Source: Patellaria atrata CBS 101060 (taxonomy: Eukaryota). From it: 64,000 bases of DNA. Below are positions 9,077 through 62,180 of this stretch, piece by piece (positions within the stretch are counted from its first letter, which is position 1; every line of letters begins with the position of its first letter). The notes under the pieces were generated by a model. It saw only the letters and a program-made list of their open reading frames with translations, had not been told where the DNA came from and made no database searches. The translations under genes were made by a program, and so were the position numbers. The DNA is taken from assembly GCA_010093705.1 (NCBI GenBank), contig MU006089.1, forward strand, positions 2,715,561 through 2,779,560, written 5' to 3'.

Positions 9077-9856
9077 AGTGAGTTAAAAGGTTTCAAGGGG
9101 CGAAATCTGGACTGAATGGTTTCCTGGGAAGACCTTGATGGATCTTTGGTCTCGTTATATATCTCATCTTTGGAGAGAATGCTTGCGCAATAGACCGGCT
9201 GTGAAGCTGTCACTATTTGTCAGGATGGGGCCAAGCAGTTCGTCCGATGCGTCATTCGCTCGACGACAACCACTGACAAGGCTAGGCAGTGCAGGTCTCA
9301 ACGTGCATTACTGCATCAGCCGACCATGCCGATTTCGCGTCTTCGAACTATATTTTGACTTCTCCGGATTGAGAACTTTTGATGTTCAGTTACTCAATCT
9401 TCCCGCTCCCATTACACCGTACGACTGTAAACGCTATCCGGGTCGGTGGGGATAAAAGCAATAAGGTAGCGCACGGATCACGAACCACACGTGACATCGT
9501 TACTGCTACTAACCGCCGACTTGCGGGATGACGCGACAATGCGCGCCAACCGGCCCCTGACGTAGCGGTAAGTCTGCAAGCCTTTCCATTTCGGGCCGTG
9601 GGGGTTATGTACCTGAGGCCGTGAGGCAGTCGACTGTAACTCATCACAGCCTTCTATAGTCTTTCAGAGCCTTTCACAGCCTTTTAGAATTTCAAATATA
9701 TTTATCTTCTCTTGCCCTTCAATTTCTGAATGAATGATTCTTTAAGAGAAAAAAACTGAGCATAGTTCTTGACTCTATATCATTAACAATCTCGAAGAAG
9801 CTCTAGTCTGCTAGCCCCAAGTTCGCAGTCTCGGACTGGTTGCATAGACGAACCTC

Positions 9857-12800
9857 ATGGCGCCCCCATCAACCCCATCTGGAAAGACTCATGAAGGTGT
9901 CAACGAATATATCACCGCGATTGAGAGACAATGGAACCTTGGCTTGACTATCCGGGGCGAGACATGGTCCCCATTGCAGGGAAAAGCCGACCACAATTGT
10001 CATATCTGCGTAGAAAGCATCAAATACCTATTTTGGATGGACAAACCTCAACTTGACAGCGTTTATGAAGCTTTCGAGAAGCGCGCTGCGCATATAAGGC
10101 AACGACAAAAAAAGTTAGAATTGTTGATCGATCTATTAAAGAAGAATTATCCAACACCAAAGAGCGGAAAGGGACTAGCCTCGCCGAAAGTGCTCCGCCC
10201 TCAAGGGAGGATACCACCACCAGATTTTACTGGAGAAGCTAGGGCTGGAGCAGTCAGAGACAGTGGAGAACATTTGAACAAACACCTAGAAGACATGTTT
10301 AATAGAGCTTCAACGATGTCGTCAAATCATATGACCGCATACGCCACGGCAGAAGATACTCCACCTTCCACTCCACGTTCTGCTGAATCATCAGATGAAG
10401 TCTATGGGACCCCGCCAGAGTCACCATCTTTGGACCGCTCCATTCGTCAACAAAGAAAACGAAAGTCATTTGATAGGACCGATGGGATGCACTCACCGAA
10501 GTTGTCGCGAACATCAGCAGGAAAACAGTGTATCGAGAGCATATCTCAGCGACCTCGCGTTGAGACTGAATTTCATGATTGCATCGAAGAGGGCTATACT
10601 TTGCCCAAGAGTCCAACACGTTCTCCTAGGTCCTCTATATCGACTCAGCCAGATGATTATGGCTTTAATTCTACTGCGCAAGCATCTTTTCAAAGTAATG
10701 TCCCAGTTGTTGATACGGCACAGACATCTTTTGCGAATAACGTACCAAATATAGAGCTTTCATCTGCGCTCGCTGAATCATTAGACGAGGAGATGGATGA
10801 TCTCTTACGGAAATACGAACGAGCCCAAGTGGTTTCACCCGGGACGCAAAGCATAGTACAATCCAGTACCCCTCCAGTTTCAACCAGACGTCAAGAGCCG
10901 GAACATTTCCAAGTTCGTGACCTTCCAAATCAAGGCCTTTTTGTGAGCTCACCTGGAGCATGGGTAAACAGCAGTTCTCCGTTCAGATTTCGATATGAGT
11001 GTCAACGTGTTGCGCTCGTTAACTCGTTACCGGTCGAAGAAGTAGCCCCAAGATATCATAGCCGGTTCGATGATATCGATACTCTCTGGGCCCATTTTAA
11101 AGAGGATAACCTCATTCTACCTAAACAACCCTCACAACAAGCTTGGGGCGCATCAGTCGGTGACTTTCGTGAAGTAACCTTGAAAGGAAGCTTATCTATC
11201 AATCCGAAGAATACCGGTTCGCTTTTCAAACTGTCTCTTGAACCCCTACATATCGACATCTCTTCTAGGTTTCAACGTGCATGGGGCGGAGATAGATTCT
11301 TATATCTTAACGTTCCTTCGTTCCAGGGTTTAAAAAACCATCTCTCTGGACCAAAACAACAACAACATCTCCATAATAGGTACCACGAATGGCTACTTAC
11401 AGAGAAACAGTTCCTCGGGAGAACTTGGAGAGTGCTCCTCTTGGAAACAAAGAAGCCCAAGAAGTGTGGGAAGCGTGATAAGGAAAGTGCTGCGCAGCGG
11501 CTAATTCTATTTGCAACTCATGGTTGCACTCTCTCACCGGCACCAACTGCAAAACGTAATGATGCAAGCATCCGAGATCTAATTCATTGGTTCATGCCAT
11601 TAGACAAGAACAGGGACCAACCGTACTGCAAAGCGTACGCTCGCCTCGAATTGGGATTCTCTCGAACTACTCCTGCCATTACTCTTAAACCAAGTCAAGT
11701 GCTGTATGTGCCAGACAAACTTCCAAGTCCCAAATTCGAAGAAGCGACAGAATTCGACGACCACACACTATGGAGGCCGTATAAGGTGGACCAGAAAAAT
11801 GTCATGAACGACGGATGCTCTATAATGTCTGTTGGAATGGCGATTTACATATGGAAAACAATGAATCTTCCAGGGCAAATCCCGAGCGCATTTCAAGGTA
11901 GGATAGGTGGTGCGAAAGGAGTGTGGATGCTTTCCGCTGCAGTAAATACAGCGGACGCACATCATCGGGATATATGGATCGAAATCACTGAAAGCCAGCG
12001 TAAATTTCAGCCTCACGATGAAGATCAAGACCGCTGTGATGCCACTTTCGAACCCCACAGATTGACCTTTGATGTGGTGGCATATACAAAGGCAACCCAA
12101 TCTAGTACCTTACATGTCGCTTTTCTGCCGATCTTACTAGATAGAGGTATCCCAGCAAAGGACCTCAAGAGTCTGATGGACCATTATTTGGAAGCGGAAA
12201 GGATTGATCTCCTCGAGAAAATGCGGAATCCCGTGCAGACACGTCAGTGGATCAGTTCAGAGTTCTCAGATATAACTGGTCAGCATGGCATCACCTGGCA
12301 AGCAGGATTACCTGAGGGAATATCGCAAAGAGCCAAATTTTTACTTGATTCGGGATTCGACCCGAAACAGCTAAAGACTTTAGCTGCTGACATGATTTCT
12401 TTGGTTGAGACGCACTTGACGAAACTCAAACAAAGCCTTAGCCTTCAGGTGAGTAGATCGACCTACACCATGGGCGTAGCCGATCCACTGGGTGTTCTAC
12501 AGCCGGGTGAAATCCATTTAGCCTTCTCTAAAACTTTCGTCGATGAAGTCAACCAGGAGAGCTACCAGTTCTTGAAAGATGTAGATGTACTCGTAGCCCG
12601 CCACCCGGCTCTTAGACGATCTGACATCCAAAGGGTCCAAGCGGTATACAAAATTGAGCTTGCCCATTTGGTGGACGTCGTTGTATTTCCATCGACCGGA
12701 AGCTTTCCCCTTGCGTCTAAACTACAGGGTGGCGATTATGATGGCGACACCTTCTGGCTCTGTTGGGAGCCTATTTTGACGAGGAACTTCAAGAACGCTC

Positions 12801-13846
12801 CTGCCCCATATACATCGCCCTCGCCCCATCAGTACGGAATCAGTGTGGACAAGCGTGAATTGAAATCTCTTCTTGGACCGCAGCACTCGGTCGATGGATT
12901 TCTCTCCAAAGTTTTCGAATTCAGGGCTCGTCGTGGCGTACTTGGAATCGCGACAAATTTCCACGAAAAGGTCTCTTATTGGGAAAACTCGATTGCATCT
13001 CCCGGAATAGAACGATTAGCCGATATTCACGATCTCCTTGTAGATTCCTCAAAGAACGGCTATACGTTCGAAGAATCAAAGTGGCGGGAATTTGTAAATA
13101 ATTGCGAGGATATAGTTATCAAAGCACCAAAGGAGCCAGCTTACAAATCGGCTGTGCAATGGAATGCACAACGACATAGTTCCGGTCCTGGAAGCATGAA
13201 CAACCAGTATAAAAAGGACCACATCATAGACCAGATCTACTTTGAACATGTGTTACCTAAATGCGACGAGATCCTCAAAGATATTGGGATTGTATTCGAG
13301 AACACCGTTGAGAGCGATGCTGATCTAGAAAGTCTGTACTTAGAGGAAAATCTGCATGCTGATCAAGCAATCAATGCAGAACTCGCAGAGCTTGTGAAAG
13401 CCTTGAAGGATCTTCACGCATTTTACGTGAATCTCGTCAGACCGCGTCACAACTTCAACGGATCAGAGGTGGAGCGGGATAGTTATGCTTCCAGCATACA
13501 AAAATGCTTCGAAAAGTACGAAAATATTTCTCCTAGTCGAACGGATGATCGGGTCATTAGGAGCTGGTTGAGAAAACGTTCCAAGGGAAGCTTTACCTAT
13601 TGGTCATTGTTGAAAGCTTCTGCGCTGTGGAGTAAACGGAAGGAGAATCAAAGATTTGTGCTCTCTATTGCCGGTAGAGAACTTGCGCAACTGAAAGCTG
13701 AGAGTGACGACAACTTCAGAACGGTTATTGGTGCCATGTATGCAAACATGAAACCAAGAAAATTCAAAGCTTCGCCACCAACTGAGGCTATTTCAAAAAA
13801 TGAGGACTCCGATTATGAAAGTGCCCTTGAGGATCAAGGGGTCTGA
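9857..13846 (+). CDS. qde-1: Cellular RNA-dependent RNA polymerase, QDE-1-like (quelling/RNAi)
   Basis: Intronless 1329-aa ORF with NDGCS, PSAFQGRIGGAKGVW, VARHPA and catalytic LQGGDYDGD. DYDGD rather than DLDGD points to the QDE-1 clade. Confidence 0.9.
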   Translation: MAPPSTPSGKTHEGVNEYITAIERQWNLGLTIRGETWSPLQGKADHNCHICVESIKYLFWMDKPQLDSVYEAFEKRAAHIRQRQKKLELLIDLLKKNYPTPKSGKGLASPKVLRPQGRIPPPDFTGEARAGAVRDSGEHLNKHLEDMFNRASTMSSNHMTAYATAEDTPPSTPRSAESSDEVYGTPPESPSLDRSIRQQRKRKSFDRTDGMHSPKLSRTSAGKQCIESISQRPRVETEFHDCIEEGYTLPKSPTRSPRSSISTQPDDYGFNSTAQASFQSNVPVVDTAQTSFANNVPNIELSSALAESLDEEMDDLLRKYERAQVVSPGTQSIVQSSTPPVSTRRQEPEHFQVRDLPNQGLFVSSPGAWVNSSSPFRFRYECQRVALVNSLPVEEVAPRYHSRFDDIDTLWAHFKEDNLILPKQPSQQAWGASVGDFREVTLKGSLSINPKNTGSLFKLSLEPLHIDISSRFQRAWGGDRFLYLNVPSFQGLKNHLSGPKQQQHLHNRYHEWLLTEKQFLGRTWRVLLLETKKPKKCGKRDKESAAQRLILFATHGCTLSPAPTAKRNDASIRDLIHWFMPLDKNRDQPYCKAYARLELGFSRTTPAITLKPSQVLYVPDKLPSPKFEEATEFDDHTLWRPYKVDQKNVMNDGCSIMSVGMAIYIWKTMNLPGQIPSAFQGRIGGAKGVWMLSAAVNTADAHHRDIWIEITESQRKFQPHDEDQDRCDATFEPHRLTFDVVAYTKATQSSTLHVAFLPILLDRGIPAKDLKSLMDHYLEAERIDLLEKMRNPVQTRQWISSEFSDITGQHGITWQAGLPEGISQRAKFLLDSGFDPKQLKTLAADMISLVETHLTKLKQSLSLQVSRSTYTMGVADPLGVLQPGEIHLAFSKTFVDEVNQESYQFLKDVDVLVARHPALRRSDIQRVQAVYKIELAHLVDVVVFPSTGSFPLASKLQGGDYDGDTFWLCWEPILTRNFKNAPAPYTSPSPHQYGISVDKRELKSLLGPQHSVDGFLSKVFEFRARRGVLGIATNFHEKVSYWENSIASPGIERLADIHDLLVDSSKNGYTFEESKWREFVNNCEDIVIKAPKEPAYKSAVQWNAQRHSSGPGSMNNQYKKDHIIDQIYFEHVLPKCDEILKDIGIVFENTVESDADLESLYLEENLHADQAINAELAELVKALKDLHAFYVNLVRPRHNFNGSEVERDSYASSIQKCFEKYENISPSRTDDRVIRSWLRKRSKGSFTYWSLLKASALWSKRKENQRFVLSIAGRELAQLKAESDDNFRTVIGAMYANMKPRKFKASPPTEAISKNEDSDYESALEDQGV

Positions 13847-22963: not shown

Positions 22964-25853
22964 TTACACCGTGCTGTACACCGGCGCTTTGACAAGTACA
23001 CTCTTCCCTCGGATCTGTATCGCGAGACCCGCCGCCATGCGAACACGTGGAGGTTGTTGGTCCTCCTTAGGTCCGTTAGAGCTTCCTGGGGGTTGCTGAC
23101 CCTGCGTGAGTGAGACTTGCGATCCTCCAGCACCAGCAGCTTGTTTCTGTTGCGTAGACGGAGGCCCAGTTTTCTTACTACCCATAAAGTTCCCAAACAT
23201 GCCACGACGACTTTTATCTTGGTCCTTTGAATTCGCAACATTTCCACCTGCGCTCACAGGAGTCTCACCACCTTCACGTTCCGAAGGCGATTCTTTTAGA
23301 TCGCTAGCAGTACTGACTAGGGAAGCTCTATCCGCATCGTCATGAGGGTTGGTTAATGGAGGAACCCCTGATTCTATGCTCATGACGTCCGGTAAAATAG
23401 GATGCCCTGGGGGAAAATACTCTATCAGCACATCTCTGCTTTCAAGAGGAAGGTTCACAGCAAGTTTGACCGCCAGCTCCACGATCATGGGTACTCCGGC
23501 ATCCAATTCGCGTGGCGGTGGTACTTGCAAATGCATCTGGAGAGAAGCCGTTAATTTCTCAATTAGAATTTCCACGAGTCGTTCACGATTAGCTGCAGCC
23601 TGTGGCGATCTTAGGCTTTCTTGCAAGCCTTCCAAGGTTGAAAGACGCCAACTGATAATCTTCGATGCAAGCGATTCCTCCTCTTCGCCAGATTGAAAAG
23701 GTGGCGCAAATTTTCGGATGTTTTGCTGGATTAACTTCAACTGCGTAGAAAGACCAACTTCAAGATCGGGATGGAAGTATTTGTCGAAAAGTTCGTCCAC
23801 AAGCCAAGAAGCGATATAAGAGCGACCAACGCAGGTCATTTCCTGTTTACCAACAGTAGTGGCATCTTTATTGACAGCTGGTTGAAGTAAAATTGGAATC
23901 GTTTTCCAATCCTTCCGGATCCCGAATGACAGATTTTGAATTAATCCATGCAGACGTAAAAATCTTTGAGCATATTCACTATCATCGAGTGAAGTACGCG
24001 ATGCCGCCAGACGAGAGTGAGCTATCGTGTTTTGCAAAGCATGTACTTGGCTCTCTTTTTCAAAGTAGTACTTCTTTACCTTTTGGTATTTCTCACCTAA
24101 GGTGCACGAATCAATAAATGAAATGGTTTCGAAATCCCAAGAAAAGAAATAAAAAAAAAATTACTTACGAAGTTCCTTGTAATCTTTTTGCATCTGCGTA
24201 TAAGCATTAGCATCTTCTTCAGTCATATCGCTAATGGAACGTGCGGGTGGAGGTGTCGCACGACCGGTATCCCCTTCCTGTTGGATTGATTGCTGATCCT
24301 GTCCTTGTTGACCCCGGTAAGGCTGACCTTGAGCTCCAGGAGGGACAACATTGGAATTGAATGTGGTTAATCCTGGAGTCTGCGATCCTTGGCCTTGCTG
24401 CATACCGGGAGGCACCTGCTGTTGACTTTGCCGCTGCTGCTGGCTTGGGGGCATGCTGGCCGTTTTGCCGTCGCCAAGTCTGCGTTGCGCTGCGGGCATA
24501 GAATTTCCCAATTGCTGTTGCGCACCTTGATTCGGATCGTTGTGTGGTTGAGATTGTCCTTGGGGATCGTACGCTTGGTAGCTCTCGGTCTGTGGTGAGG
24601 GAGGCACGAATTGCTGCTGCGAGGGAGGTCGGTTAATCTGCAAGTGTTGTTGATCCTGCAGGATCTGTTGTTGAACTGGTAGTCGGGTAGCTTGAGGATG
24701 TTGAAGCTCCGGATATTGCTGCTGAGCAGAAGGTGGCCGCGCTGACTGCGGGTGTTGAGAGTCCTTTTGCTGCTGGGACGGAGGACGGCCCTGCTGGATA
24801 TATTGATTCAGATCTTGCTGCTGTTGGTGCTGTTGTTGATAGGAATAATCAGTACGGTTATTAGCGTCACCCGGGTGTTGTGACTGTGGAAGGGTGGCAG
24901 TATTTGGGCTGACAGGTTGACCTTGAGGGATAAAAGCTTGGTAGTTGGCGTTTGATGGTGTCTGCAGCTGCTGTTGATGATATGCTATGTATTGGGGTGG
25001 TTGCTGGCCAATATGCTCTGGACTGTAATGGTCTGTAGTTGTTTGAGTATGGTGACTATGGTCTGTGTCCACCCTTGCTATAGTCGGTCGTTGGAATTGA
25101 CTTGGATGCGACTCTTGCTGGTAAGCTTGATGAGGAAAGTCCTTAGCAGGAACCACTGGGGGTTGTTGAGAGTTAGGGGAGTGGTCCTCTGGCCGTTGTA
25201 GGAACGGATCGACGTCTTCGTCCGCTTCGTTAGATGTTGTTAATGGCTGGGCAGAGCTTCGTCTTGCAGGCCACTGCTGTTGAGATTGCGGCTGATCCTG
25301 GTTGGGATATCTAGCGCCGTCTGTGACTTTCTTTCGTAGGGATACCGTACGTGCCAGTCCACTTGCGTTTGCGCTGCCTGTTCCCAGATTGCTAGAGCTC
25401 TCACGAGTCGAATGTGAATGGTGTCCTAGACCCAATCGACTTCTTATAGACCTCTTCTCATGTGTATGTTCCTGACCCTGCGGATTATAGGAGTATCGTT
25501 GGTCTGGAGGTCTTTCACTTGAGGGTGAGGTGATTTCAGCCGCGTTTACAGACGCTGCAACATTGATTGGGGGCCGGTCTAACGAAAGGTTCGTAGAATG
25601 TCTATGGCTTGTGGAACGTCCTATGGGACCTTGTGATTGATTCGAATACCTCTGCTGTTGTTCTTCAGCTTGTCTGTAACGCTGCTGTTGAAGTGCAGCC
25701 TCATGAGCTAAGTGGGTGTCAGCGAGGGGGTGGGACCGAGACGAAGGAGCTTCTTTCTATAACACAAGACGTACCCAACGCAGCGTTCTGATCAGTAGAA
25801 CTTCCCAATGAAGCCTGCGACCTATTGGACTTGGACCAGGGCAAAGATGGCAT
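22964..25853 (-). CDS. Conserved-type fungal hypothetical protein with a Gln-rich low-complexity N-half and helical C-terminal domain
   Basis: ATG at 25853 (MPSLPWSKS), intron ~25773-25708, long Q-rich exon, intron ~24167-24097, then EKYQKVKKYYFEK...LVKAPVYSTV*. Confidence 0.8.
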
Positions 25854-50465: not shown

Positions 50466-52297
50466 ACGTGGTCTACAAGCGAGCGGCGCACTTTTCCACT
50501 CCACCATAACCTTCAAACTTAATTACATAGCTACAACCCGAGAAGATTAACTGCACTCAATTGAACTCTTTTCTTCAGACATTTCTTCGTCCTCTTAACA
50601 AGTTCGTATATTATGTCCAATCTTTCCGCACCTCCTACAACGCCGTGAATGCGACAATCCTTCCTCCAACTTCCTACCCGATTGTTGTCTAACAACCTCT
50701 TTCTAGGCAATCAATTCTTGTGCATCTTATACACTAAGTGCTCCTCCTGCTCGCACACGTGTTTTTTTTGGCCCGTCGTCGCTTCGCAAGTGCCTTATTA
50801 GCCTGTCGAAGCGTTCGGACCTCGTCGCGTAGAAGTGTCATTTCATGAGCAATAAGCTCCGTACCTTTTGCTAACTACTTAACAGCAGAGAAAATAGTAC
50901 TTGGAGAACTTCCTTGGTATCGGGCTATCCGATCCTTGACATGCTCAGACTGCGAAACAGCTTCTTTGGGGTTGTTTGGTGTCTGAGAGACCTATGGGTC
51001 GGCAGCGGGGGGAAGGGGTCCGGCCGGTGTTGGCGTCCGTAACTTCATATCAAGCTCTGAAATGACAGCTTAAGGGTCGTGAGGGACTAGGCCAGCGCCG
51101 AAGAAGCCCGCTTGGATATTTCCAATCGTCATAGTGTTGACGTGGGCGTCTTTTAACCCGGTGAAGAACTCGGTTTTGGTGATATGGATAATATGGGCTT
51201 TGATGAAGGCTTCGAGTTCCCGGCCGTACATCCGCTTCAGCACGCTGAAACATCCAACATCTAAAGGTTGGGTGAGGTGCGAAGAATGTGCAGGCAGGCA
51301 GGCAAACGGTGATAATGTTCTTTTCTTTGCAGAATTCCTCGAACTGAGCCGACAGATGGCTTGCATGACCGTCAAGAACAATCATCCGATAGACACCTTT
51401 CCGCCGGGCATCTATATGCTGGTGGAAATGCTGAATCCAGTCCATAACCGTCTCTTTATCCGTCCAGCCGTTTGGCGAGGTCTTGATGACCCAGGAAGGC
51501 GGGAGACTGCATTCGGTGTACCAGGATGCGAGGTGGTTGACGCCTTGCACAACCAAGAAAGGAAGCAGCACAAAACCGTCGCTGCTCACACACTCGATTG
51601 CCGTGGCCCATTCGCGATTGCCAGGTTGAAGTTGTTTGCCTCTACCACGCCTGTCGGCACGCGTGACAACCATGCCGCCGCAGATAACGCCCATCATGAA
51701 GCCTGTTTCGTCGAAGTTGTAAATATCGGCATCTTGGATCGCGTATTTCGCGCGCATGTTAGCTACCAGACGGAACCACGCGTTTATCGCGTCCGGATCT
51801 TCGCAGAGAGCTCTCTAGAAGTTGTAGGCACGAGAAAAACGCGTTTTCAGCTCTGGTCGTCGCTTGACGAAGTTCTCCGCCCAATGCTTCCTGACGCGTC
51901 CCGCGACGCGCTCCGCGAGGAGCAGATTGGCCATCTCTTCCACATTAGCCAGCCGGGACGGAAACCCTCGCGCATCTAGGTCCAGAATATATTGGACGAC
52001 CACCTCTTCTTCGGTTTCTGTCAGCTTTTGAGCATTAGGGCGATAGTCGCGCTTGGGAGTTCGGCCGTTTATTCTCGCGCGGAGGGTAGTTTCGGAGACG
52101 TTGTAGATCGCTGCGGCTTTCCGACGGCTGAGTTTTTTGTTGCGTTCGAGAGCTTGGATGGCAAGGACAATTTGACTTTCGTTTGATTGCGTAGGCATTG
52201 TTGGTTGTGGAGAAATGCGTTATTATAGAAGAAAAAGTTATGATGCGTGGAAAAGTGCGCCGCTCGCTTGTGTGCGCCACTCGCTTATGGACCACGT
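50466..52297 (-). mobile_element. Fot1/Pot2-like (pogo, Tc1-mariner superfamily) DNA transposon, 1832 bp, TA target-site dinucleotides
   Basis: TIRs begin ACGTGGTC..AAGCGAGCGGCGCACTTTTCCAC at both ends, flanked by TA at 50464-50465 and 52298-52299, and enclose a transposase. Confidence 0.93.
50596..52198 (-). pseudogene. Inactivated pogo/Fot1 DDE transposase
   Basis: HTH_psq (RKAAAIYNVSETTL), CENP-B HTH, YNFDETGF, VLDGHASH, QPLDVGCF and C-terminal CRRCGKIGHNIRTC. Stop TAG at 51815, a 4-bp duplication frameshift near 51295, and further stops. Confidence 0.9.
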
Positions 52298-55200
52298 TAG
52301 AGGACTTTTAAACTGGACACCAACCCTACCAATTCTACTCTGTGGAGATTTTAATCTACACTATAGCTGGTGGAACCAACAAGCCACTACCTCTAAGATA
52401 GCCAAGTCAAGAACCATGGTCAAATGGCTAAGGGACCATAACTGTCAGCTCCTTAATCTATACAATACTGGCACATTCTTTAGATCTAACCTAACAAGAC
52501 AATCAATTATCGATCTAGCATTTGTCTCATCTAACTTTCAGCACGCCACCTGGGATAACTGGGCCATCACTGAAGAGACAGGGAGTGACCATAAGACAAT
52601 TGCATTCTCTATGTTTACTAGGAAGATAGAAAGGTTCCAGAACCCTCTACAAAGCCCACCATATGCTTTAAAGAAGGCAGACTGGGAGGAGTTTATAAAC
52701 ACACTTAAAGTAAGATCGCAAGATCTCAGGGTAGATCAAAGGATAAAGCAAGTAGAGGACTACACCCTAACCCATTCAATCAACTTACTGGCGTAAAACA
52801 GTCAAGAACAGCAAGGCTGGATAGACAAGATGGAAGAACTAGTAGTGGACCTTACGTATTGCCTCACAACTGCAGCAGACAAAGCCATCCCAAAAGCCAG
52901 AATCTGCGAATACTCTAAAACATGGTGGAACAAAGACATATTTAATAAGAGGAAGAAGATGACCCAACTTAGGAGAAGGCTTAAGATCTATTATCCAAGA
53001 AACCAGGAATAGCTGAACTATGCATTTAAAGCTGCACGGAATGACTACTTTCACACCATTAGAAAGGCAAAGTCTGATTACTGGAATAGCTTTCTTGAGA
53101 ATGCTAGAGGGAAGGAAGTCTTCACTGCACTAAAGTACACTAAAGATAAAACACTACGCAACATTCCCACACTGCAGTACTCTAGTAATGGTATACTAAC
53201 ACAAGCGGAAAGCTTTAAAGACAAATGCACAGCTCTCATTACCACCTTATTCCCTACACCACCAAGCACAACAGCCTGCCAATGGGAAACCTACTCACAG
53301 GATCCAAGCTGGGAATGGCCACGACTGGATAGTGTAGAAGTGGAGGCAGCAATTAATTCTAGCTCACATAGGAAAGCCCCAGGAGGAGATAAACTTTCGT
53401 TTACCATTATCTAGAAAGCGTACCCAGCAATCTCGGACATTTTCTCGGACATTTTCAATAGGCTGTATAAGCTCCTATTTCAAGTTGGCTATCATCCTAG
53501 GATATGGAGGGAGGCAGTAGGAGTTATGCTGCCAAAGCCTAATAAAGACGACTACTCTATACCAAAGTTATATAGGATCATCTCCTTACTTAACTGCCTA
53601 GGCAAGACTTTAGAAAAGATCATGGCAACAAGACTAGGCTACCTAGCAAACACCACACACCTACTTCAGCACTCACAGATGGGAGGGAGGCAACAGCGCT
53701 CTGCTATTGATGCAACACTCTTACTGCTGGAGTATATCCAGAGCCAAAAGGCTGGCAAGTCAGGGAGTAGGAAAGTTGCTACAACATTACTGTTTGATGT
53801 GAAAGGAGCGTTTGACCATGTATCAAAGAACCAACTACTATCTACCTGCAAACAACTAGGACTCCCATATAGCCTCTACCAATGGATCTCATGCTTCTTA
53901 ACTCACAGAAAGATGCAACTGATATTTAATGGGGAAAGGCAAGAAATGCATAGTATAATTTTGGCATACCTCAAGGCTCACCAATCTCGCCGATTCTCTT
54001 CTTAATCTACATTAGGAAGATATGTAAAGATAGGGAGTGGATTAACTTACTAACTTATATTGATGACTTTTCACTGACAACAGTCTCCACGTCTGTAAAG
54101 AAAAACTGCAAGCTGCTAGAACAGGCTGCCCAAGACCTGATCTTAACAGCTAAAGAGCATGGCATTGAATTTGATATTGCAAAAACGGAACTCATCCACT
54201 TTCATAATAAGAGAACACCAATCCAGGACTCAATCTGCCTCTTCAACCAAGTGGTCCAGCCAGAGCTAATGGTTAGATGGCTTGGGATGTTCCTAGACTC
54301 AAAACTCACCTTCAAACAGCATGTAGAAAGAAAGATTAAGAGTGCAGAAAATGCAATATACATGATTCAAAGGCTAGGAAACACACAGAAAGGTCTATCA
54401 ATGCAAGCGGTGCGTAAGCTGTATATTGCATGCGTCAACTCAATAGCAGACTATGGAGTACCAGTATGGTGGAACCCAAATCACAGGAACAGCCAGCAAG
54501 TTGGAAGGTATCAAACATTGCAGAATAAAGCATTAAGGATGATCTTAGGTGCCTTTAAGACTTCCCCAAGCATGGCCATGGAAATTGAAGCAGATCTACC
54601 TCCCCCAGCTGTTAGATTTGAAAAGCTATGCAATTCTTATGCCCTCAGAACTCTAAAGTTCCATAAAAACCATCTAGTTAAGAGAGTTCTCTGGGAAGAG
54701 CTTGAAAGAGATGACTTAGAAGCAACCTTAGACTCTAACTCAGAAGCAGGCAATACTCCTATCAAGTATATCACAAGACCAAACACTCAACTCCTGTCCT
54801 TATTGAAGAGAACTCAGGAGTTTATCACCAACTGGAAGATGGAAAAGATTTCCATACATAATGCCCAACCTTGGAGACCAAAGTTAAAGGCGTTATTTAT
54901 CATCTCCAGCAAGGATAAGGAAAAAGCATCAAAGCAACATGACAAAATAATTAGAGACCTAGAATCAAGCATAAAAGATGGGCTAGTCAGTGTTTACTAC
55001 ACTGATGGGTCTAAAGATGGCAACAGAAATGCTGCAGGAGCATGTCAGATAGGAAATAATCGGCGTATTTTGTTTGCCAGTAACTGGAACTTAGGGGATA
55101 GCGTTGAGATTATGGATGCAGAGCTATTTGCCATTCTCAAAGCACTTGAAAGAGAAAAGGCCCAACGTGAGAAAGGACAATCCATTGCCAAAAACCTATG

Positions 55201-55990
55201 CGTTTTTGTGGACAGCCAGGCAGCACTTAAGAGACTACAAAAGAATGCCCTCGATGGAGGACAAGAATTAAGTATAAAGATAACAGACCTATGTAATACC
55301 CTTACTAATGAATGGGAAATGAGAATTACCTTCAGCTGGGTTCCCGGTCATAAAAACATCTTTGGGAATGACATAGCAGACAAGCTGGCTAAAAAGGGAC
55401 TGGGCAGCAAGCCTATAGGCACTTCATTCACATCACTCAGTTATATTAAACGGAAAGCCAAAGAAAAGATCTTATCTGATTGGAAACAAAGCTGGGAAGC
55501 CAATAGCAAGAAACAAGGCAAACATTATACACGCATTTGCAGAGATCTTGTGCGTTTCTCACTCGGTATACCCAAATCCAATGTCCAGAAGAAGATCCAA
55601 GCAGCATACTTTCAACTTAAGACTGGTATTGGATTTTTCAAATCTTACTCTAAGGTGATTGGGAAAGATGAAGAAGGGAAGTGCTTCAGAGACTGTCAAT
55701 CACTCCAAACACCAACACACCTAATTTTACATTGTGCACACTACTCTAAGGAACGCAAGGAAATGAGGAAGGAACTAAGATCAAAGCTAACAATGGAAAA
55801 GCTTTTTTGCACAAAGTTAGGCAAACAGGTGTTATTCAAGTTTTTAGCAAAAACTCAAATCTCTACCGCCAGATGGTTAATACACGCAGGAGATATAGAT
55901 AGAGTAGAAGCATAGAGTCTACAGAAGATAACAAGATGTATGGCATAAAAATGGAAATTAGAAAAGAGATGGTGAAGAGGAAGAAAGACG
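52298..55990 (+). mobile_element. 5'-truncated non-LTR retrotransposon (Tad1-like LINE) with EN-RT-RNase H ORF2, inactivated
   Basis: Endonuclease LCGDFN, IDLAF, GSDH; RT YRIISLLNCLGK, DVKGAFDHV, YIDDF, WLGMFLD; RNase H YTDGS, AELFAI, VDSQAAL, WVPGH; terminal Cys/His knuckle. Stops at 52794, 53010 and 53412, and a frameshift near 53960. Confidence 0.92.
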
Positions 55991-56059: not shown

Positions 56060-56190
56060 GGTTTTCTTCCCTCTAGCATTCTCAAGAAAGCTATTCCAAT
56101 GGTCAGAATTTGCCTTTCTGATGGTGTGAAAGTATTCATTCCTGTCAGCTTTAAATGCGCAGTTCTGTTGTTCCTGGTTCCTTGGGTGAT
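56060..56190 (-). mobile_element. Inverted ~130-bp fragment of the same LINE family
   Basis: Reverse complement aligns by eye to 52990-53121 (HPRNQEQQNCAFKADRNEYFHTIRKANSDHWNSFLENARG) with scattered substitutions. Confidence 0.88.
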
Positions 56191-57276
56191 GTGAGCGGTC
56201 CCTAGTAATTGTATTCCAACTATCTAGTCCAGATGCTATCTACAATCAAGATAAAGAAGAAGAGAAGAGGCCGAGGGCAGGTTCAAGGAGAATCTTACTG
56301 GCTGATCTTCGGGTTCAGGGCACGCCCATACCATTAGGCTCTAGCCAGTTACATCGACGTGTACTGTGTCCGCAAGAGTGACGCAACGTTGATATCTTCT
56401 AGGGAATCTTCGTCTTCCGTTCCAAAAGCGATTGTTTAATACAATATCGGGGTGATAATGTCGGAAAGATGAGTTGAAACTTCGCATAGATGCTTTAAGT
56501 CCTTAAGTTCCCATGGCTGTTTAAGTTCGCCGGTCTAGCTTTACTGACTTTGGAACAAAACTACCCACTTGAAAATCGTCACAGGAATTTCCACCAGCAG
56601 ATCTAATAACATTGTCTATTATTGTAAGTCTGATCTTTTGTTTTATGGTATAGGATGTGCTTAGACGATAAATACTGGGTTGCGGTGTGATTGTAGCGTC
56701 CAAATGGAGACCGTGAGCTGACGAGGTGAACAATAAATCTTACCACCATTAACGACAGCTGGTCAACGGGCCATAGGAAGGATCGGGATCGATTACCTTA
56801 AGGGATCGCTATTAGAATGCAGTTGCCAGAAGATCGTTGTGAAATTGTAGAAGCGGGTGACATAGCAAAGACTTGACAAATCCTAAAGGTACGGGCAATA
56901 TCCCTAAGGTGCTTGCGTACCAAAGTAAAGATTTCCTCCCATCTCAAAGCGAAATGTGTCTAAAGCCACGAACCAAAAGACTATTTGTAGCTGTAAGTAA
57001 AATATATAATTATAGCACTAACAAGGCGCTTACGCGAGTGTTTATCACTTTCGTAATCCGATTGCCCCTAATAAGCGGGTTTTCGAAAATAGACTTAGCG
57101 GAAGCATTTTCGAGAACACTAACTGATTGTGTGAATTACCTCCCTTTCGCCAGGTGTTCCATGCAATAGGAATTTTGAATTGTAGTCCCAAAACTCGGTT
57201 CTTCCTGTCCTCGATTGGGGAATCTTAGATCTCACTTCCTGAATTTGCCCTGGGTGCTCTAGTTTTCGAGGAACCG

Positions 57277-59586
57277 CTATTCGAACACCTTTAAGCTGTG
57301 TAATTCAATAGCCGCTCGTCGTATCTCCCGCGTAAATACAGAACACCTGTCTCCTATCTGCTTCGTTAGACTTCTCTCCGAGTCCAATCCTCGCTTCCTC
57401 TTCCAATTTGATGAGATGATACCCAGGGCAGGCCGTGGTTCGCAAACCTGTGCCCGCTCAAAATCGATCACCATGACCTGGCTAGTCTCCTCATCCCACA
57501 GCATGTTACGAGGCATAAGGTCCTTATGTAAAACCCGCAGCTCATGGATTGCTCGGACTGCGCAGTCAACCTGTTGAGTGATGTATTGCCTGTTCTTGGT
57601 GGTGAGGTGTTGATAGATAGGTTTTCCTCCGAAACTAAGAAACATCATGTGAACAAGCTCTGTAATGCCTTCATAGAAATAGGGAGTGTCCAGATCTATG
57701 TTACCTAAATGGACCGGCACATGGATACCCTGGATTGGACGGAGGTGCTCGTAGATGGTAGCCTCCCGTTTGAGGCGATGAACGAAGTCGATAGGGGTGC
57801 ATTTAGCGGCTACGGTGTATCCGTGCGATCTCAGTCTGACACGGAATAGGACGCCGCATGCTCCAGGAACACCTACAGGATTGCAGTCGATATCTAGAGT
57901 TTTTGAGAGTTGTTGGCGAATGAGATCAAGGAAGGTAGGCGTATCAATCTGATGATAGCTCTCCCCGTGATCGCGTACGTTTGGACACAACATATCGAGC
58001 GGACCACCCTCAACTAAACCGCGCAAACAATTTTGCGTACAGTATTGTCCACTTTGTGCTCCTCGGCGGGAATTGCGACTAGGCGACGAGCTGCCGGCAG
58101 TGGCTTGGGTGCCAGACGGGCATTGGGGTGAGGATATTTGTCGACTTGGAGTGTCCGGATCAGGCTCGTCATCACTAGCTTCATGCTGATCCTGGGGTCG
58201 CGAGCAGTTAGGAGAGCCAGTTAGAGCTGGTCTTCCCCTGAGCTGGATGGGCGACGTACGAAGGAATACATCGTGCCGAGGTGGTCGGTACTCCGATGAT
58301 GGCGCGTCTTGTAGAGGAATGACATCCAGCATGTCATCGTACACAACCTCCCAGCTATTCAGTTGAGCGGCGGCCTCGGCCCGCCACTTCTGACCCCGAG
58401 GCGGTGTCTTCAGCGCCTGAAGGGTAAAAGCCAGCATCTGCCCAACGGCTGTTAGGTGCAGGCGATTCGCTCCGCCCGAATTTGGTACCCATCCTGTGGA
58501 TTCCCCGACGTCACCCTTGGGGACGGATAGGAAGTAGTGCACCGTCCTAGGATCATCGGGCACCCGTAGGAAGATGAATGCTTCGCCAGTGCACACGCAA
58601 CCATACTTTAACCCAACCTTCACTATATAAGAAAATGCTTGTGTGATGACTGCAGCCATTAGTCGACGAAAGTGGTCTCGCGGAGTATCAGTTTCGCGAC
58701 ACTGGATCACGTCCTCGAGTTCCATATCATCTAGACCCTCGTAGATATAACTGAGCGGGAGCTTGTGTGGCGCCTTATATTCAACAATGAAGGCGGCAAT
58801 GCGATTCTCTATGTTCTGAGTGCTTATGTTATAGACGCAAAATTGATCTGCACGAGGACGGGACGGTCGTGCTGCTACGCGAATTGCGGTCGATTCTATT
58901 GGGTCTGTCGAGCTTAATGGCCTTGCATCTTTGGACTGAGCCTGTAAGCGTGGTGACCGTCGTGGCTGAGTTCCCGATAGCGTCGTTTGCTCCATGCCCT
59001 CTTCGAGTAGTTCCGTGCTGAGGGTGTTGGCGTGATTCTCGAAGCTTATAGAACCTTGTAGACAAAACTTCCGTCGAAGCGATCGGTCGTTGTACATTTG
59101 TTTGATAATCAGTGATACCGGGTCCTCGACAGTGGAGCGCTGAAAGACGTTTAGGTCTAGCTCAGAACTCAACATCCTCCGTCGGACAGCCTCCCCAGAC
59201 TCTGTCAGGGTATGCACTGAGGTGAAGTGCCGCTCCGAGACAAAATCCAAACTCATAAGGTCGTCCCAGATCGCTTCCTGATGCGCCGCGAAATCGTCCC
59301 ATATAAGGACCCTTTCGGGTCGAAGCTTGTTATTCGCATTCGCAGGGCCGCCTCGCGTCGACAACGACACATTGGTCTGAACGGCGAGATTTGAGTGAAG
59401 ATGATTGTGACAGGCATCGAGGAACTCGGGAAGAGTCGTCTTGCGGGTTTTCTCTTCAGCTTTTTCCTGTGCCAGCTCTGCTTCTTCGCGTCTGCGCTGC
59501 TCTTCTTCGCGGGCTTGTTCCGCTTCTTGCCGCCTGCATTGCTCTTCAAGCCAGAGTCGTTTGTAATCGGGCGATTGTTGGGACAT
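57277..59586 (-). CDS. Spok-family (spore-killer-like) protein: coiled coil + PD-(D/E)xK nuclease + Cys/His cluster + protein-kinase-like domain
   Basis: Intact intronless 769-aa ORF: EEEQRRREE coiled coil, RKTTLPEFLDACHNHL, RADQF..IVEYKAPHK, CTQNC-x13-C-x5-H-x4-H, VAAK, HKDLMPRN, IDFE. Confidence 0.85.
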   Translation of the reverse strand: MSQQSPDYKRLWLEEQCRRQEAEQAREEEQRRREEAELAQEKAEEKTRKTTLPEFLDACHNHLHSNLAVQTNVSLSTRGGPANANNKLRPERVLIWDDFAAHQEAIWDDLMSLDFVSERHFTSVHTLTESGEAVRRRMLSSELDLNVFQRSTVEDPVSLIIKQMYNDRSLRRKFCLQGSISFENHANTLSTELLEEGMEQTTLSGTQPRRSPRLQAQSKDARPLSSTDPIESTAIRVAARPSRPRADQFCVYNISTQNIENRIAAFIVEYKAPHKLPLSYIYEGLDDMELEDVIQCRETDTPRDHFRRLMAAVITQAFSYIVKVGLKYGCVCTGEAFIFLRVPDDPRTVHYFLSVPKGDVGESTGWVPNSGGANRLHLTAVGQMLAFTLQALKTPPRGQKWRAEAAAQLNSWEVVYDDMLDVIPLQDAPSSEYRPPRHDVFLRTSPIQLRGRPALTGSPNCSRPQDQHEASDDEPDPDTPSRQISSPQCPSGTQATAGSSSPSRNSRRGAQSGQYCTQNCLRGLVEGGPLDMLCPNVRDHGESYHQIDTPTFLDLIRQQLSKTLDIDCNPVGVPGACGVLFRVRLRSHGYTVAAKCTPIDFVHRLKREATIYEHLRPIQGIHVPVHLGNIDLDTPYFYEGITELVHMMFLSFGGKPIYQHLTTKNRQYITQQVDCAVRAIHELRVLHKDLMPRNMLWDEETSQVMVIDFERAQVCEPRPALGIISSNWKRKRGLDSERSLTKQIGDRCSVFTREIRRAAIELHSLKVFE

Positions 59587-60049: not shown

Positions 60050-61350
60050 GAAAGGTGCGTGAACTTTACATTTCTCCTTTGTGACTAGTGCGTGGGCTGT
60101 GGGAAAAACGTCCTTAATCCAAAGGTTTTGTGGTCAGTAAATTGATACTCCGGACACGCAATTAAGATGCTCTACCTGCCCGCCCGTTGAGCCTACTACT
60201 AACCAACCGTTCCAATTCCTCATCATGGACATCCGGAGCTGCGCAGAAGGTGCGCGATCGAGAAATGAAATGGCCCTGAATCCGCTTCCTTGCGTCGCTT
60301 CCTAACTCGTCATATCCCAACATGAGATGGATTCGGCTAAGAATTCCATCGTCAAACTCGGACACTCTGTTTGTCACCAAGAACATGATTCCGTCTAGAT
60401 ATTTCAGTTTGTAGAGAAACATAGTGACGAGGCTGTTGCGACGTAGGTCTCGAGATGGACGCCGCTCGGGATAGACGTCAGCTTCATCTAGAAGAAGAAC
60501 CGCATCCCGGTGGGTGGCAATTTGAAAGATATCTGAGAGCTGACCTTCCACTACCCTTGCTTTGGTACTTGATTCGCCAGCGGAGATCTTGAGAGTTAGA
60601 AAGGAAGGTTTCATTGAAGAGGAGAACAGGTTACATACTGAATAAAGAGGTCTTCTAAAGATGTTCAGCAACAGCCTTAGCTGTGAGCGTCTTTCCTAAT
60701 CCCAGGCTGGTAATTGTAAGAGAGCGCAGACAAGAGGGTACGGGGTACCATATTAAAATAGCACAATAAAGCTGCAACCTTTCCCAGCAACAAAATCGTC
60801 CAATTTAACCCATGCGCTCGATTCGTACGGGCCTCTGCAAGAGCCATGATAGTCTCTTCATGTTCCTTGGGAATCGTTAAGCAATCCAAAGGTACAGTGA
60901 ACCACTGGATCTCCTCGATACCGGCGACGAGGTTTTCCGGTATGTATCCATAGATTAGCTTGATGGGCAGCTAGTAGGGTGATGTATTTCACCCCACAAC
61001 TTTTCGTTAAGGCTGAAACCAGCTACTGTAGGACAGCAGATAAGCAAACATTCCTCCGTTACGTCAGCGGGATCTAAGCCTGTGCTCCTGACCTGTTCGG
61101 GCAGCGACTGAGAAGGGCGTAAGAGGTCAAAAGGGAGGTTTGAACTTGCGTCGTCTTCCTCATTAATCTTTGGTCTGGAATAATTTGGACCCATTCTCCG
61201 AGAAAAAGATGAATCGACCATAATCCGGCTGTCGACAAGTGGGACGGAGAAAGGCCACACGGTACAACTGCGGGGGAAAGTCAATGACACGAAGATCACG
61301 TGACTTAGACGCAATGGACGCAGAAGGAGTTCTACATCCAACACGTCCAA
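60050..61350 (-). pseudogene. AAA+ ATPase pseudogene
   Basis: Walker A remnant GLGKTLTAKAVAEHL followed by a stop/frameshift near 60655, Walker B LLLDEADVY, TNRVSEFDDGILSRIHL, and upstream FDDFVAGKG and CCPTVAGFSL in other frames. Confidence 0.8.
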
Positions 61351-62180
61351 ACACTCGGAATAGGACTCGGAGGAGAAATGCTTAAGGACGCTCCTTTACG
61401 CTTATATTTAGATTCTTCGTAGTTCTTCTTACCAACATATCTTACTATAAGATTGGATGTTACGATCTTTGACTTAACTCACCTTTATCATACTATTTCG
61501 TACAGTATCACTTATCTCTACTGTGAAGCGTTGAGAGAGTTAAGGGGAAGCAAGTTGTATTGTCAACTTGAAGTGCAAACCTTTACACGTTCTATCACGA
61601 AGCGGAAACCTAACCCTTCTAGGAAGGAGGTCTCTCATCAGTGAGAAACCTTGCGCGTGTTTATACCTATCTGGTTCCGGCTTAGAGAAGTATAAACTCC
61701 CGTCGTTAACAAAAAACTTAAAAAAAACCATTCGAGAAATATGTGTGATGGAAGCAATAGCGTGCTGATAGTGATTCTCTCTTTTATGTTAATATGCACT
61801 CTCGACTTTCTTCTGAATAGTAAGCCGTCCCCTGTAATCCTGAATTGCTTCCGTTGTTCTATACTGAGGTGTTTCCTGTGTTATTGGTCTCTTTTGATGC
61901 AATGGTGCACCTGGGCGCCTCGATCGGCTGTCTATGCCGGCCGAGATCCTTCTTATTCAAGCACGATTGTTTTGTTGGCAATGCTCTCTTGTCAGGTTTC
62001 ACCCAAGGCTTTGAAAGAGCCATAGGGAAGTAAGTCAACACGTAGGCATAGACTTGAAAGGTACAAATATCTGAAATATCCAGCTTTCCTTTCAATCTTG
62101 AAGTTGAGCAGAACTATCTAAGCTAAACAGTGATCTATGTGCTGATCTTCAATATATTGTGCGAGCATCCATCAAGAAGA

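Follow-up and report, generated by a model that had tools for sequence, protein, structure and literature searches.

An intact, duplicated Spok-family gene in the genome of Patellaria atrata CBS 101060

Background

Spok genes are, to our knowledge, the sole known meiotic drivers that unite poison and antidote in a single protein. The present study deals with a candidate member of this family in the fungus Patellaria atrata CBS 101060, located in a stretch of 64,000 nt (contig MU006089.1 of assembly GCA_010093705.1, positions 2,715,561–2,779,560, forward strand; hereafter "the window", with coordinates counted from its first letter). An initial annotation of the window had proposed an intact Spok-like gene (hereafter the query) at 57277–59586, as a candidate for an active toxin-antidote driver embedded among transposons.

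The described Podospora set comprises Spok1 of P. comata as well as Spok2, Spok3 and Spok4 of P. anserina (Grognet 2014, Vogan 2019). SPOK3 starts with a coiled coil (first ~40 residues, a repeat of variable length), followed by domain 1 (~40–170), for which no function was assigned (PMC6660238). Unstructured regions are reported at ~170–210 and ~400–490, the nuclease motif residues at 219–240 and a QxxxY motif at 294–298; the C-terminal part holds a Cys/His cluster of the form C-x3-C-x13-C-x5-H-x7-H and a kinase-like domain (~539–700) with the catalytic D667 (PMC6660238).

The division of labour between the two enzymatic domains was deduced from mutants. Exchange K240A abolished killing by SPOK3 but left resistance intact, while the D667A variant was toxic and rescued by the wild type (PMC6660238). 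SPOK1 with the exchange D680A was toxic in Escherichia coli and yeast via DNA damage that required the nuclease domain (PMC9972908). The one published screen of homologues from outside Podospora dealt with six Fusarium proteins whose catalytic residues are conserved; two of these, FuSpok1 and FuSpok2 from F. poae (GenBank PQ540985 and PQ540984), were toxic in yeast once the kinase aspartate was mutated. FuSpoks occur both on core and on accessory DNA, and their gene models are prone to false introns (PMC12693581).

Results and discussion

Family membership and gene model

The query is a single intronless open reading frame (ORF) of 769 codons on the minus strand (57277–59586, stop codon included), running from an ATG to the stop codon without internal stops, as the initial annotation had stated. 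The precomputed Pfam domains of its product include PF27653.1 (SPOK2_N, the family name being taken from the Atlas and the domain listed without a score). Among the candidates scored, 710 relatives were found at E ≤ 1e-3, the best 120 of them at E ≤ 1e-215, nearly all full length and all 120 carrying PF27653. Since so many relatives exist, the ensemble of motifs is far beyond chance. At thresholds of E ≤ 1e-3, 1e-10 and 1e-30, an exhaustive HMMER search over 1.84 billion cluster representatives retrieved 2671, 1744 and 754 clusters, respectively. With its Pfam model, an InterPro entry (IPR052396) and hundreds of ascomycete sequence clusters, the Spok family is already catalogued; the query thus adds no new principle.

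Podospora proteins were reached by a second homology search, seeded with a relative from Fusarium zealandicum. They comprise P0345 (P. aff. communis, annotated as "putative spok spore killer"), P0361 (P. bellae-mahoneyi) and P0362 (P. pseudocomata). BLASTP of the query yielded 36 % identity with both P0362 (727 columns, E 2e-108) and P0345 (706 columns, E 6e-122), the alignments covering residues 41–734 of the query. In both cases ADQFC, EYKAPHK, TQxFSY, the Cys cluster, AK, HxDxxxRN and DFERA stand in register. Similarity to proteins of the Podospora spok group is therefore significant; the initial annotation had listed a lack of significant similarity to SPOKs among its refuting findings. 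None of the three is labelled Spok1-4, and their residue numbering differs from that of SPOK3. Twenty further candidates with a numbering or spacing like that of SPOK3 or SPOK1 were dismissed as SPOK1-4, because the named ones stem from metagenome-assembled genomes of lichens, from Daldinia and from F. zealandicum. Judging from the alignments, the query almost certainly belongs to the Spok family, and its residues K271 and D689 appear to correspond to K240 (killing) and D667 (resistance) of SPOK3. At the level of titles and abstracts, no description of Spok genes in Dothideomycetes or Patellaria was found in the literature.

In an alignment of 24 homologues from Dothideo-, Sordario-, Eurotio- and Lecanoromycetes, both termini of the query protein coincide with those of the full-length homologues; the gene model is therefore complete and an intron is not needed. 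The alternative that the locus is a pseudogene in decay, or that an ordinary protein kinase was mistaken for a Spok, could draw on the transposons adjoining the gene and on a marginal Pkinase score (see below). However, all 769 codons are open and align end to end with homologues, the protein is assigned to SPOK2_N, and over its first 500 residues it shows homology to Spok proteins, not to kinases. Signs of repeat-induced point mutation (RIP) are likewise lacking: the dinucleotide indices of the ORF (TpA/ApT 0.70; (CpA+TpG)/(ApC+GpT) 1.14) resemble those of neighbouring housekeeping genes, the usual thresholds being 0.89 and 1.03, respectively. This alternative is effectively refuted and retains a very slight residual probability.

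Domain architecture and conserved residues

The domain order proposed in the initial annotation (coiled coil, domain 1, nuclease, Cys/His cluster, kinase) is supported by motifs, alignment and structural models alike, and all motifs it listed were recovered at the respective residue and window positions. The N-terminal coiled-coil helix (aa 8–47; 59446–59565, minus strand, as are all features of the protein given here) consists of EEQRRRE-type heptads and is modelled as one helix; the number of such heptad-type repeats differs among the homologues of the 24-sequence alignment. Domain 1 (aa 48–186; 59029–59445) begins with the motif RKTTLPEFLDACHNHL (aa 48–63; 59445–59398), forms a folded segment in the model and contains many invariant columns (T50 to N187).

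The predicted nuclease domain of the PD-(D/E)XK type (aa 245–425; 58312–58854) is marked by D247 in RADQF (aa 245–249; 58854–58840), by E269-x-K271 in EYKAPHK (aa 269–275; 58782–58762) and by Q316xxxY320 in QAFSY (aa 316–320), the last of these being absent from the initial annotation and having a counterpart in the QxxxY motif of SPOK3. Further downstream follow the Cys/His cluster C516-x3-C520-x13-C534-x5-H540-x4-H545 (57952–58041), of which the C-x3-C-x13-C-x5-H part spans aa 516–540 (58041–57967), and the kinase-like domain (aa 567–720; 57427–57888) with K595 in VAAK (aa 592–595), the catalytic D689 and N694 in HKDLMPRN (aa 687–694), and D708 in DFE (aa 708–710).

Conservation of these residues is pronounced. 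Invariant in all 24 aligned sequences are D247, Q248, E269, K271, Q316 and Y320 of the nuclease domain, C516, C520, C534 and H545 of the Cys/His cluster, and K595, D689, N694, D708, F709 and E710 of the kinase-like domain; H540 is conserved in at least 90 %. In a larger set of 232 homologues (all those retrieved at that point, minus proteins shorter than 600 aa), the signature residues of the three regions are retained in 214 to 231 sequences, among them D247, E269, K271, Q316 and Y320 in 219, 221, 226, 228 and 214, respectively, and D689 in 227. The claim that the gene is intact thus holds for the full-length frame as well as for the catalytic residues.

An AlphaFold model of the whole protein, based on the 24-sequence alignment, reached a mean predicted local distance difference test score (pLDDT) of 70.2 and a predicted template modelling score (pTM) of 0.61. 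It displays the helix at aa 8–47, a folded domain up to ~aa 186, a second folded domain at aa 246–425 and a folded C-terminal domain. Values of pLDDT below 50 are confined to two segments (aa 187–245 and 427–512).

A second, near-identical copy

The query is one of two near-identical intact paralogues in its genome, a finding not contained in the initial annotation. The second member of its 90 %-identity cluster (P0269, 785 aa) is encoded on another contig of P. atrata CBS 101060. Relative to the query, it carries two additional EEQRRRE heptads (14 residues) behind aa 35 and shows the substitutions C175R, M198I, I230T, V367T, G451R, D554N and L740V. Beyond its residue 754 (query aa 740), P0269 is annotated with a C-terminus that corresponds to an out-of-frame ORF located past the stop codon of the query (57119–57304, minus strand). 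From this match, the public gene model of P0269 probably contains a false 3' intron, an error known for Spok gene models (PMC12693581).

Independent indications came from contigs of two sequencing runs (X1 and X2) of one sample. A provisional classification of these runs as RNA was rejected: the contigs extend across neighbouring genes without joints and therefore represent DNA. Over 56946–59502, contig depth is ~1.7-fold that of single-copy sequence, amounting to 556 in X1 (319–325 in the single-copy flanks) and to 734–818 in X2 (450–474 in the flanks). Contig depth is a rough guide and not a copy number; matching substitutions constitute the stronger evidence for a second copy. Six differences separate the X1 contig from the window, one of them located 3' of the stop codon. 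The five coding base differences are all non-synonymous and result in C175R (59064), V367T (two bases, 58487/58488), G451R (58236) and V750E; in X2, the variant at 58487 and 58488 is present at about half depth. Since three substitutions of P0269 (C175R, V367T and G451R) recur in the reads, both copies are present in the sample. The contigs break at ~59489–59502, close to the codons where the heptad number of the two copies diverges. By contig depth, the duplicated unit measures ~2.6–2.9 kb and corresponds to the gene itself.

Taken together, the paralogues differ by two heptads in the coiled coil and by about eight substitutions, and every substitution seen at the nucleotide level is non-synonymous, with no synonymous differences seen. 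Near-identical copies that differ in coiled-coil repeats and few residues were described as the pattern of Spok clade II (PMC6660238). One may speculate that each paralogue is a toxin/antidote driver of its own, neither protecting against the other, as is the case for Spok3 and Spok4 of Podospora, a reading which we consider improbable. If true, they would represent the first spore killer shown outside the Sordariomycetes and a natural minimal pair for the residues that determine Spok specificity. Because very few positions differ, the two copies also provide a convenient natural pair for mapping cross-protection residues, if either of them proves active.

Phylogenetic position

A maximum-likelihood tree of 40 hand-picked full-length proteins (IQ-TREE, LG+C20+F+G4; midpoint root for drawing only) shows the placement of the query, not the structure of the whole family. 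It consists of two strongly supported sister clades. The first (support 100/100) comprises sequences from Podospora, Fusarium, Metarhizium, Colletotrichum and Xylariales. The second (100/99) holds the query and its paralogue P0269, which are sisters (100/100), among mostly dothideomycete sequences together with eurotiomycete and lichen-fungus branches. The query can thus be assigned, on the basis of this tree, to a mostly dothideomycete clade with the Podospora/Fusarium clade as its sister group; this placement likewise extends the initial annotation. The value of the query is modest and lies in documenting an intact, duplicated and apparently diversifying pair in a clade sister to all placed Podospora and Fusarium sequences.

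Within the query's clade, sequences from Diaporthe and one from Xylaria polymorpha are nested next to Corynespora (100/100). Since sordariomycete sequences nest among dothideomycete ones, the gene tree conflicts with taxonomy, a disagreement also reported for Spoks (PMC6660238).

Fold predictions for the enzymatic domains

The nuclease domain (aa 240–425), folded alone with 51 sequences, reached a pLDDT of 92.9 and a pTM of 0.87. A structure search with VIA-align, which covers 48,161 chains and is independent of Foldseek, ranked four restriction-endonuclease-type chains first. The top match was BpuSI (3s1s; Z 7.1, root-mean-square deviation (rmsd) 3.7, 104 residues aligned); a fragment of HsdR from V. 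vulnificus (3h1t) followed with Z 4.8, rmsd 3.0, 83 residues aligned and 20 % identity, and further matches were DrdV (7lo5, Z 4.6) and TT1808 (1wdj, Z 4.4). The search thereby recovered V. vulnificus HsdR, reported as the best HHpred hit for the nuclease of SPOK3 (PMC6660238). The evidence for the nuclease fold is supportive but short of decisive, because Z ≥ 5 is attained by a single chain and, according to the tool, values under 8 can reflect a common arrangement.

The C-terminal domain is recognised by three Pfam models, i.e., Pkinase (32.1 bits; cut-off 31.7), Kdo (30.3; 21.3) and APH (26.2; 23.2). By phmmer against PDB sequences it matches MAPK14 (the MAP kinase p38; E 2e-6), and Foldseek with the whole model returned nothing but kinases, the top rows all being protein kinases (E ~1e-6).

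Predicted function

The query is very probably best explained as an intact and duplicated member of the Spok family, with all catalytic residues conserved and the folds of both enzymatic domains supported. By homology, its most likely mechanism is that of the Podospora SPOKs, where one protein serves as toxin and antidote. The PD-(D/E)XK nuclease in its centre (D247, E269, K271, Q316, Y320) would damage chromosomal DNA, and the C-terminal kinase-like domain (K595, D689, N694, D708) would neutralise this toxicity, in cis and in trans, as long as the protein is still made. Cells or spores losing the gene would suffer harm. By this analogy to the Podospora proteins, the query protein would be produced, may be toxic with self-protection and might distort meiotic transmission. 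The individual steps are less probable than the reading as a whole: that the query is a working toxin/antidote has at most about an even chance, and that it is a demonstrable meiotic spore killer appears doubtful.

Several observations weigh against this function. We know of no tested member of the mostly dothideomycete clade, and the query's position in it places the gene outside the clade of the Podospora and Fusarium sequences. The two Podospora proteins aligned with the query (P0345 and P0362) are not SPOK1-4 themselves, and identity to them is only 36 %. As to the nuclease domain, Foldseek against the PDB gave zero matches at E ≤ 1e-3 (the weak restriction-endonuclease-like rows at E 0.18–1.0 include 9y1l at 0.18 and BpuSI at 0.22), phmmer against PDB sequences returned nothing significant (best, BAX at E 0.54), and the VIA-align Z values of 7.1 and 4.8 rate as "middling" on the scale of the tool. 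The Pkinase score lies barely above the Pfam cut-off. The second conserved histidine of the Cys/His cluster (H545) follows at x4 versus the published x7; a pattern search in 233 sequences found x4 in 88, x3 in 63 and x7 in 11, counts that are indicative only, given that the first histidine met was taken. Since all three spacings occur, the position of the final histidine seems to vary family-wide. Finally, four of the six Fusarium homologues tested in yeast had no effect, including NECHADRAFT_82228, possibly due to low sensitivity of the assay (PMC12693581).

According to a second explanation, the query is intact but non-selfish or inert, serving another nuclease-kinase role or representing a weak or neutral copy heading for decay. 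This explanation has considerable weight, if somewhat less than an even chance. It conforms to the four Fusarium homologues that lacked an effect despite conserved catalytic residues, and the same authors consider that Podospora and F. poae might each have co-opted the gene for selfish behaviour on their own (PMC12693581). The low identity to the Podospora proteins fits as well, as does the size of the family (754 clusters at E ≤ 1e-30), drive having been demonstrated for only a handful of its members. On the other hand, every catalytic residue of both domains is conserved, both copies are intact, and they diverge by non-synonymous changes and coiled-coil repeat number like diversifying Spoks. 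Moreover, the nesting of sordariomycete among dothideomycete sequences suggests a mobility typical of selfish Spoks, and limited sensitivity of the yeast assay may account for the negative outcomes (PMC12693581).

Genomic surroundings

The description of the gene as embedded among transposons is only partly accurate. A pogo element, a LINE (long interspersed nuclear element) and a repeat of ~25 copies are located in its immediate vicinity, but the remaining ~50 kb harbour housekeeping genes. From position 1 to ~50,000, these ordinary genes include Gtr1/RagA, Arf, an RNA-dependent RNA polymerase (RdRP), arabinonolactone oxidase (ALO), Dus, a GMC oxidoreductase and a WD40 protein.

The pogo/Tc1-type DNA transposon (50475–52271, minus strand) contains a DDE_1 ORF (51050–51814, minus strand) between perfect 25-nt terminal inverted repeats (50475–50499 and 52247–52271) and is apparently complete. 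Its contig depth is ~2–4 times that of single-copy sequence, and the single-copy contig stops at its edge (50504–50510). Adjacent are the ORFs of a LINE-type retrotransposon (52272–55915, plus strand; Exo_endo_phos_2, RVT_1 and RNase_H), which is multi-copy by depth; the stop-to-stop frame of its first ORF opens at 52176, i.e., within the adjoining pogo element. Both elements are situated 3' of the Spok gene. On its other side, a short dispersed repeat (61432–61682) reaches ~25 times single-copy depth; the contigs break at 61432 and 61682, and depth in the bin 61343–62009 amounts to 7993 (X1) and 11525 (X2). Unlike the rest of the region, this repeat has RIP-like indices (TpA/ApT 1.5; (CpA+TpG)/(ApC+GpT) 0.68). 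A glutamine-synthetase-like gene follows beyond it.

Apart from the inverted repeats of the pogo element and the LINE region, no repeats bounding a mobile unit around the Spok gene were found. A captain-type domain of Starship elements (DUF3435) was detected neither in the 25 scanned of the 34 ORFs of at least 150 aa nor in 10 further ORFs, within a window that ends 4.4 kb upstream of the gene and excludes the second locus, and by a scan that can miss intron-split genes.

These surroundings are pertinent to a third explanation, i.e., a vegetative "addiction" module, in which toxin and antidote punish the mitotic loss of the carrier DNA instead of driving in meiosis. Such a model was proposed for FuSpoks on accessory chromosomes (PMC12693581), a Starship-borne spok was reported to limit the loss of a dispensable chromosome (bioRxiv 10.64898/2026.10.04.756499), and vegetative expression was described for Spok1 and Spok2 of Podospora (PMC6660238). 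However, the window resembles a core chromosome, with its ~50 kb of housekeeping genes on a contig of 3.59 Mb, the ORFs scanned lack a captain, and the duplicated unit is just the gene itself. An addiction module is accordingly rather unlikely for the query, and action by the mechanism of the Podospora SPOKs remains the preferred reading.

Several other features of the region were observed. Directly upstream of the Spok gene, three consecutive ORFs in different frames (60162–61395, minus strand), the first with a weak match to AAA ATPases (E 5.6e-5), represent either an intron-split or a degraded AAA-ATPase gene; this stretch is single copy by depth. Within the transposon region, a 128-nt inverted repeat of 86 % complementarity (52990–53117 and 56063–56190) flanks most of the LINE coding region and may indicate nested or rearranged LINE copies. 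Contigs of two further runs (X3 and X4), which by their codes belong to other organisms and studies, match the Spok ORF over 57656–57872 and 58669–58841: the X3 contig (217 nt) shows 0 differences, the X4 contig (173 nt) falls into the class of 99 % or more, and depth is ~2.7–2.8. X3 additionally contains fragments of the LINE and of the repeat at 61.4 kb. Minor amounts of the same fungus in these samples, or else shared mobile DNA, could account for these matches.

Farther away, the RdRP ORF (9848–13846, plus strand) is uninterrupted over 1332 aa, belongs to the RNA-silencing type (PF05183, E 7e-124) and looks ordinary. At 22964–25756 (minus strand), two adjacent ORFs of 398 and 531 aa abut at 24160/24161 and have no match in Pfam; the sequence around them displays strong GC and AT skew at 24–26 kb.

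Comparison with known systems

The central domain of the query shares the PD-(D/E)XK core fold with restriction enzymes of types I, IIG and IIL (HsdR 3h1t, BpuSI 3s1s, DrdV 7lo5). In contrast to these, it has no significant sequence similarity to them, a low structural Z and neither a methyltransferase nor a helicase partner; moreover, protection in Spoks is attributed to the fused kinase and not to DNA methylation (PMC9972908).

The resemblance to the Podospora SPOKs extends over the entire protein. The query, too, is a single intronless ORF in the range of ~750–800 aa with a coiled coil of variable length, domain 1, a PD-(D/E)XK nuclease with QxxxY, a Cys/His cluster and a kinase-like domain, and it has two disordered linkers at places matching those of SPOK3. 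As for Podospora Spoks, near-identical paralogues are present in the genome and the gene tree conflicts with taxonomy. Differences to SPOK3 concern spacing, i.e., 24 versus 21 between the D and K of the nuclease motif and x4 versus x7 between the two histidines. Neither a Spok block nor an Enterprise-type element was seen in the window.

With the FuSpoks (FuSpok1/FuSpok2 of F. poae; NECHADRAFT_82228), the query shares family, architecture and multi-copy occurrence in the genome, and the model of its paralogue P0269 appears to bear a false 3' intron, an error to which FuSpok models are prone. By contrast, the Fusarium sequences fall into the other major clade (P0198 of F. zealandicum is 36 % identical to the query), and the window displays no sign of an accessory chromosome. 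A closer correspondence exists with dothideomycete homologues from Zopfia rhizophila, a Phaeosphaeriaceae sp., Corynespora cassiicola, Alternaria and others, which are annotated as "hypothetical protein" or "protein kinase domain-containing protein": they are 64–77 % identical to the query over the full length and share both its Pfam content and its clade.

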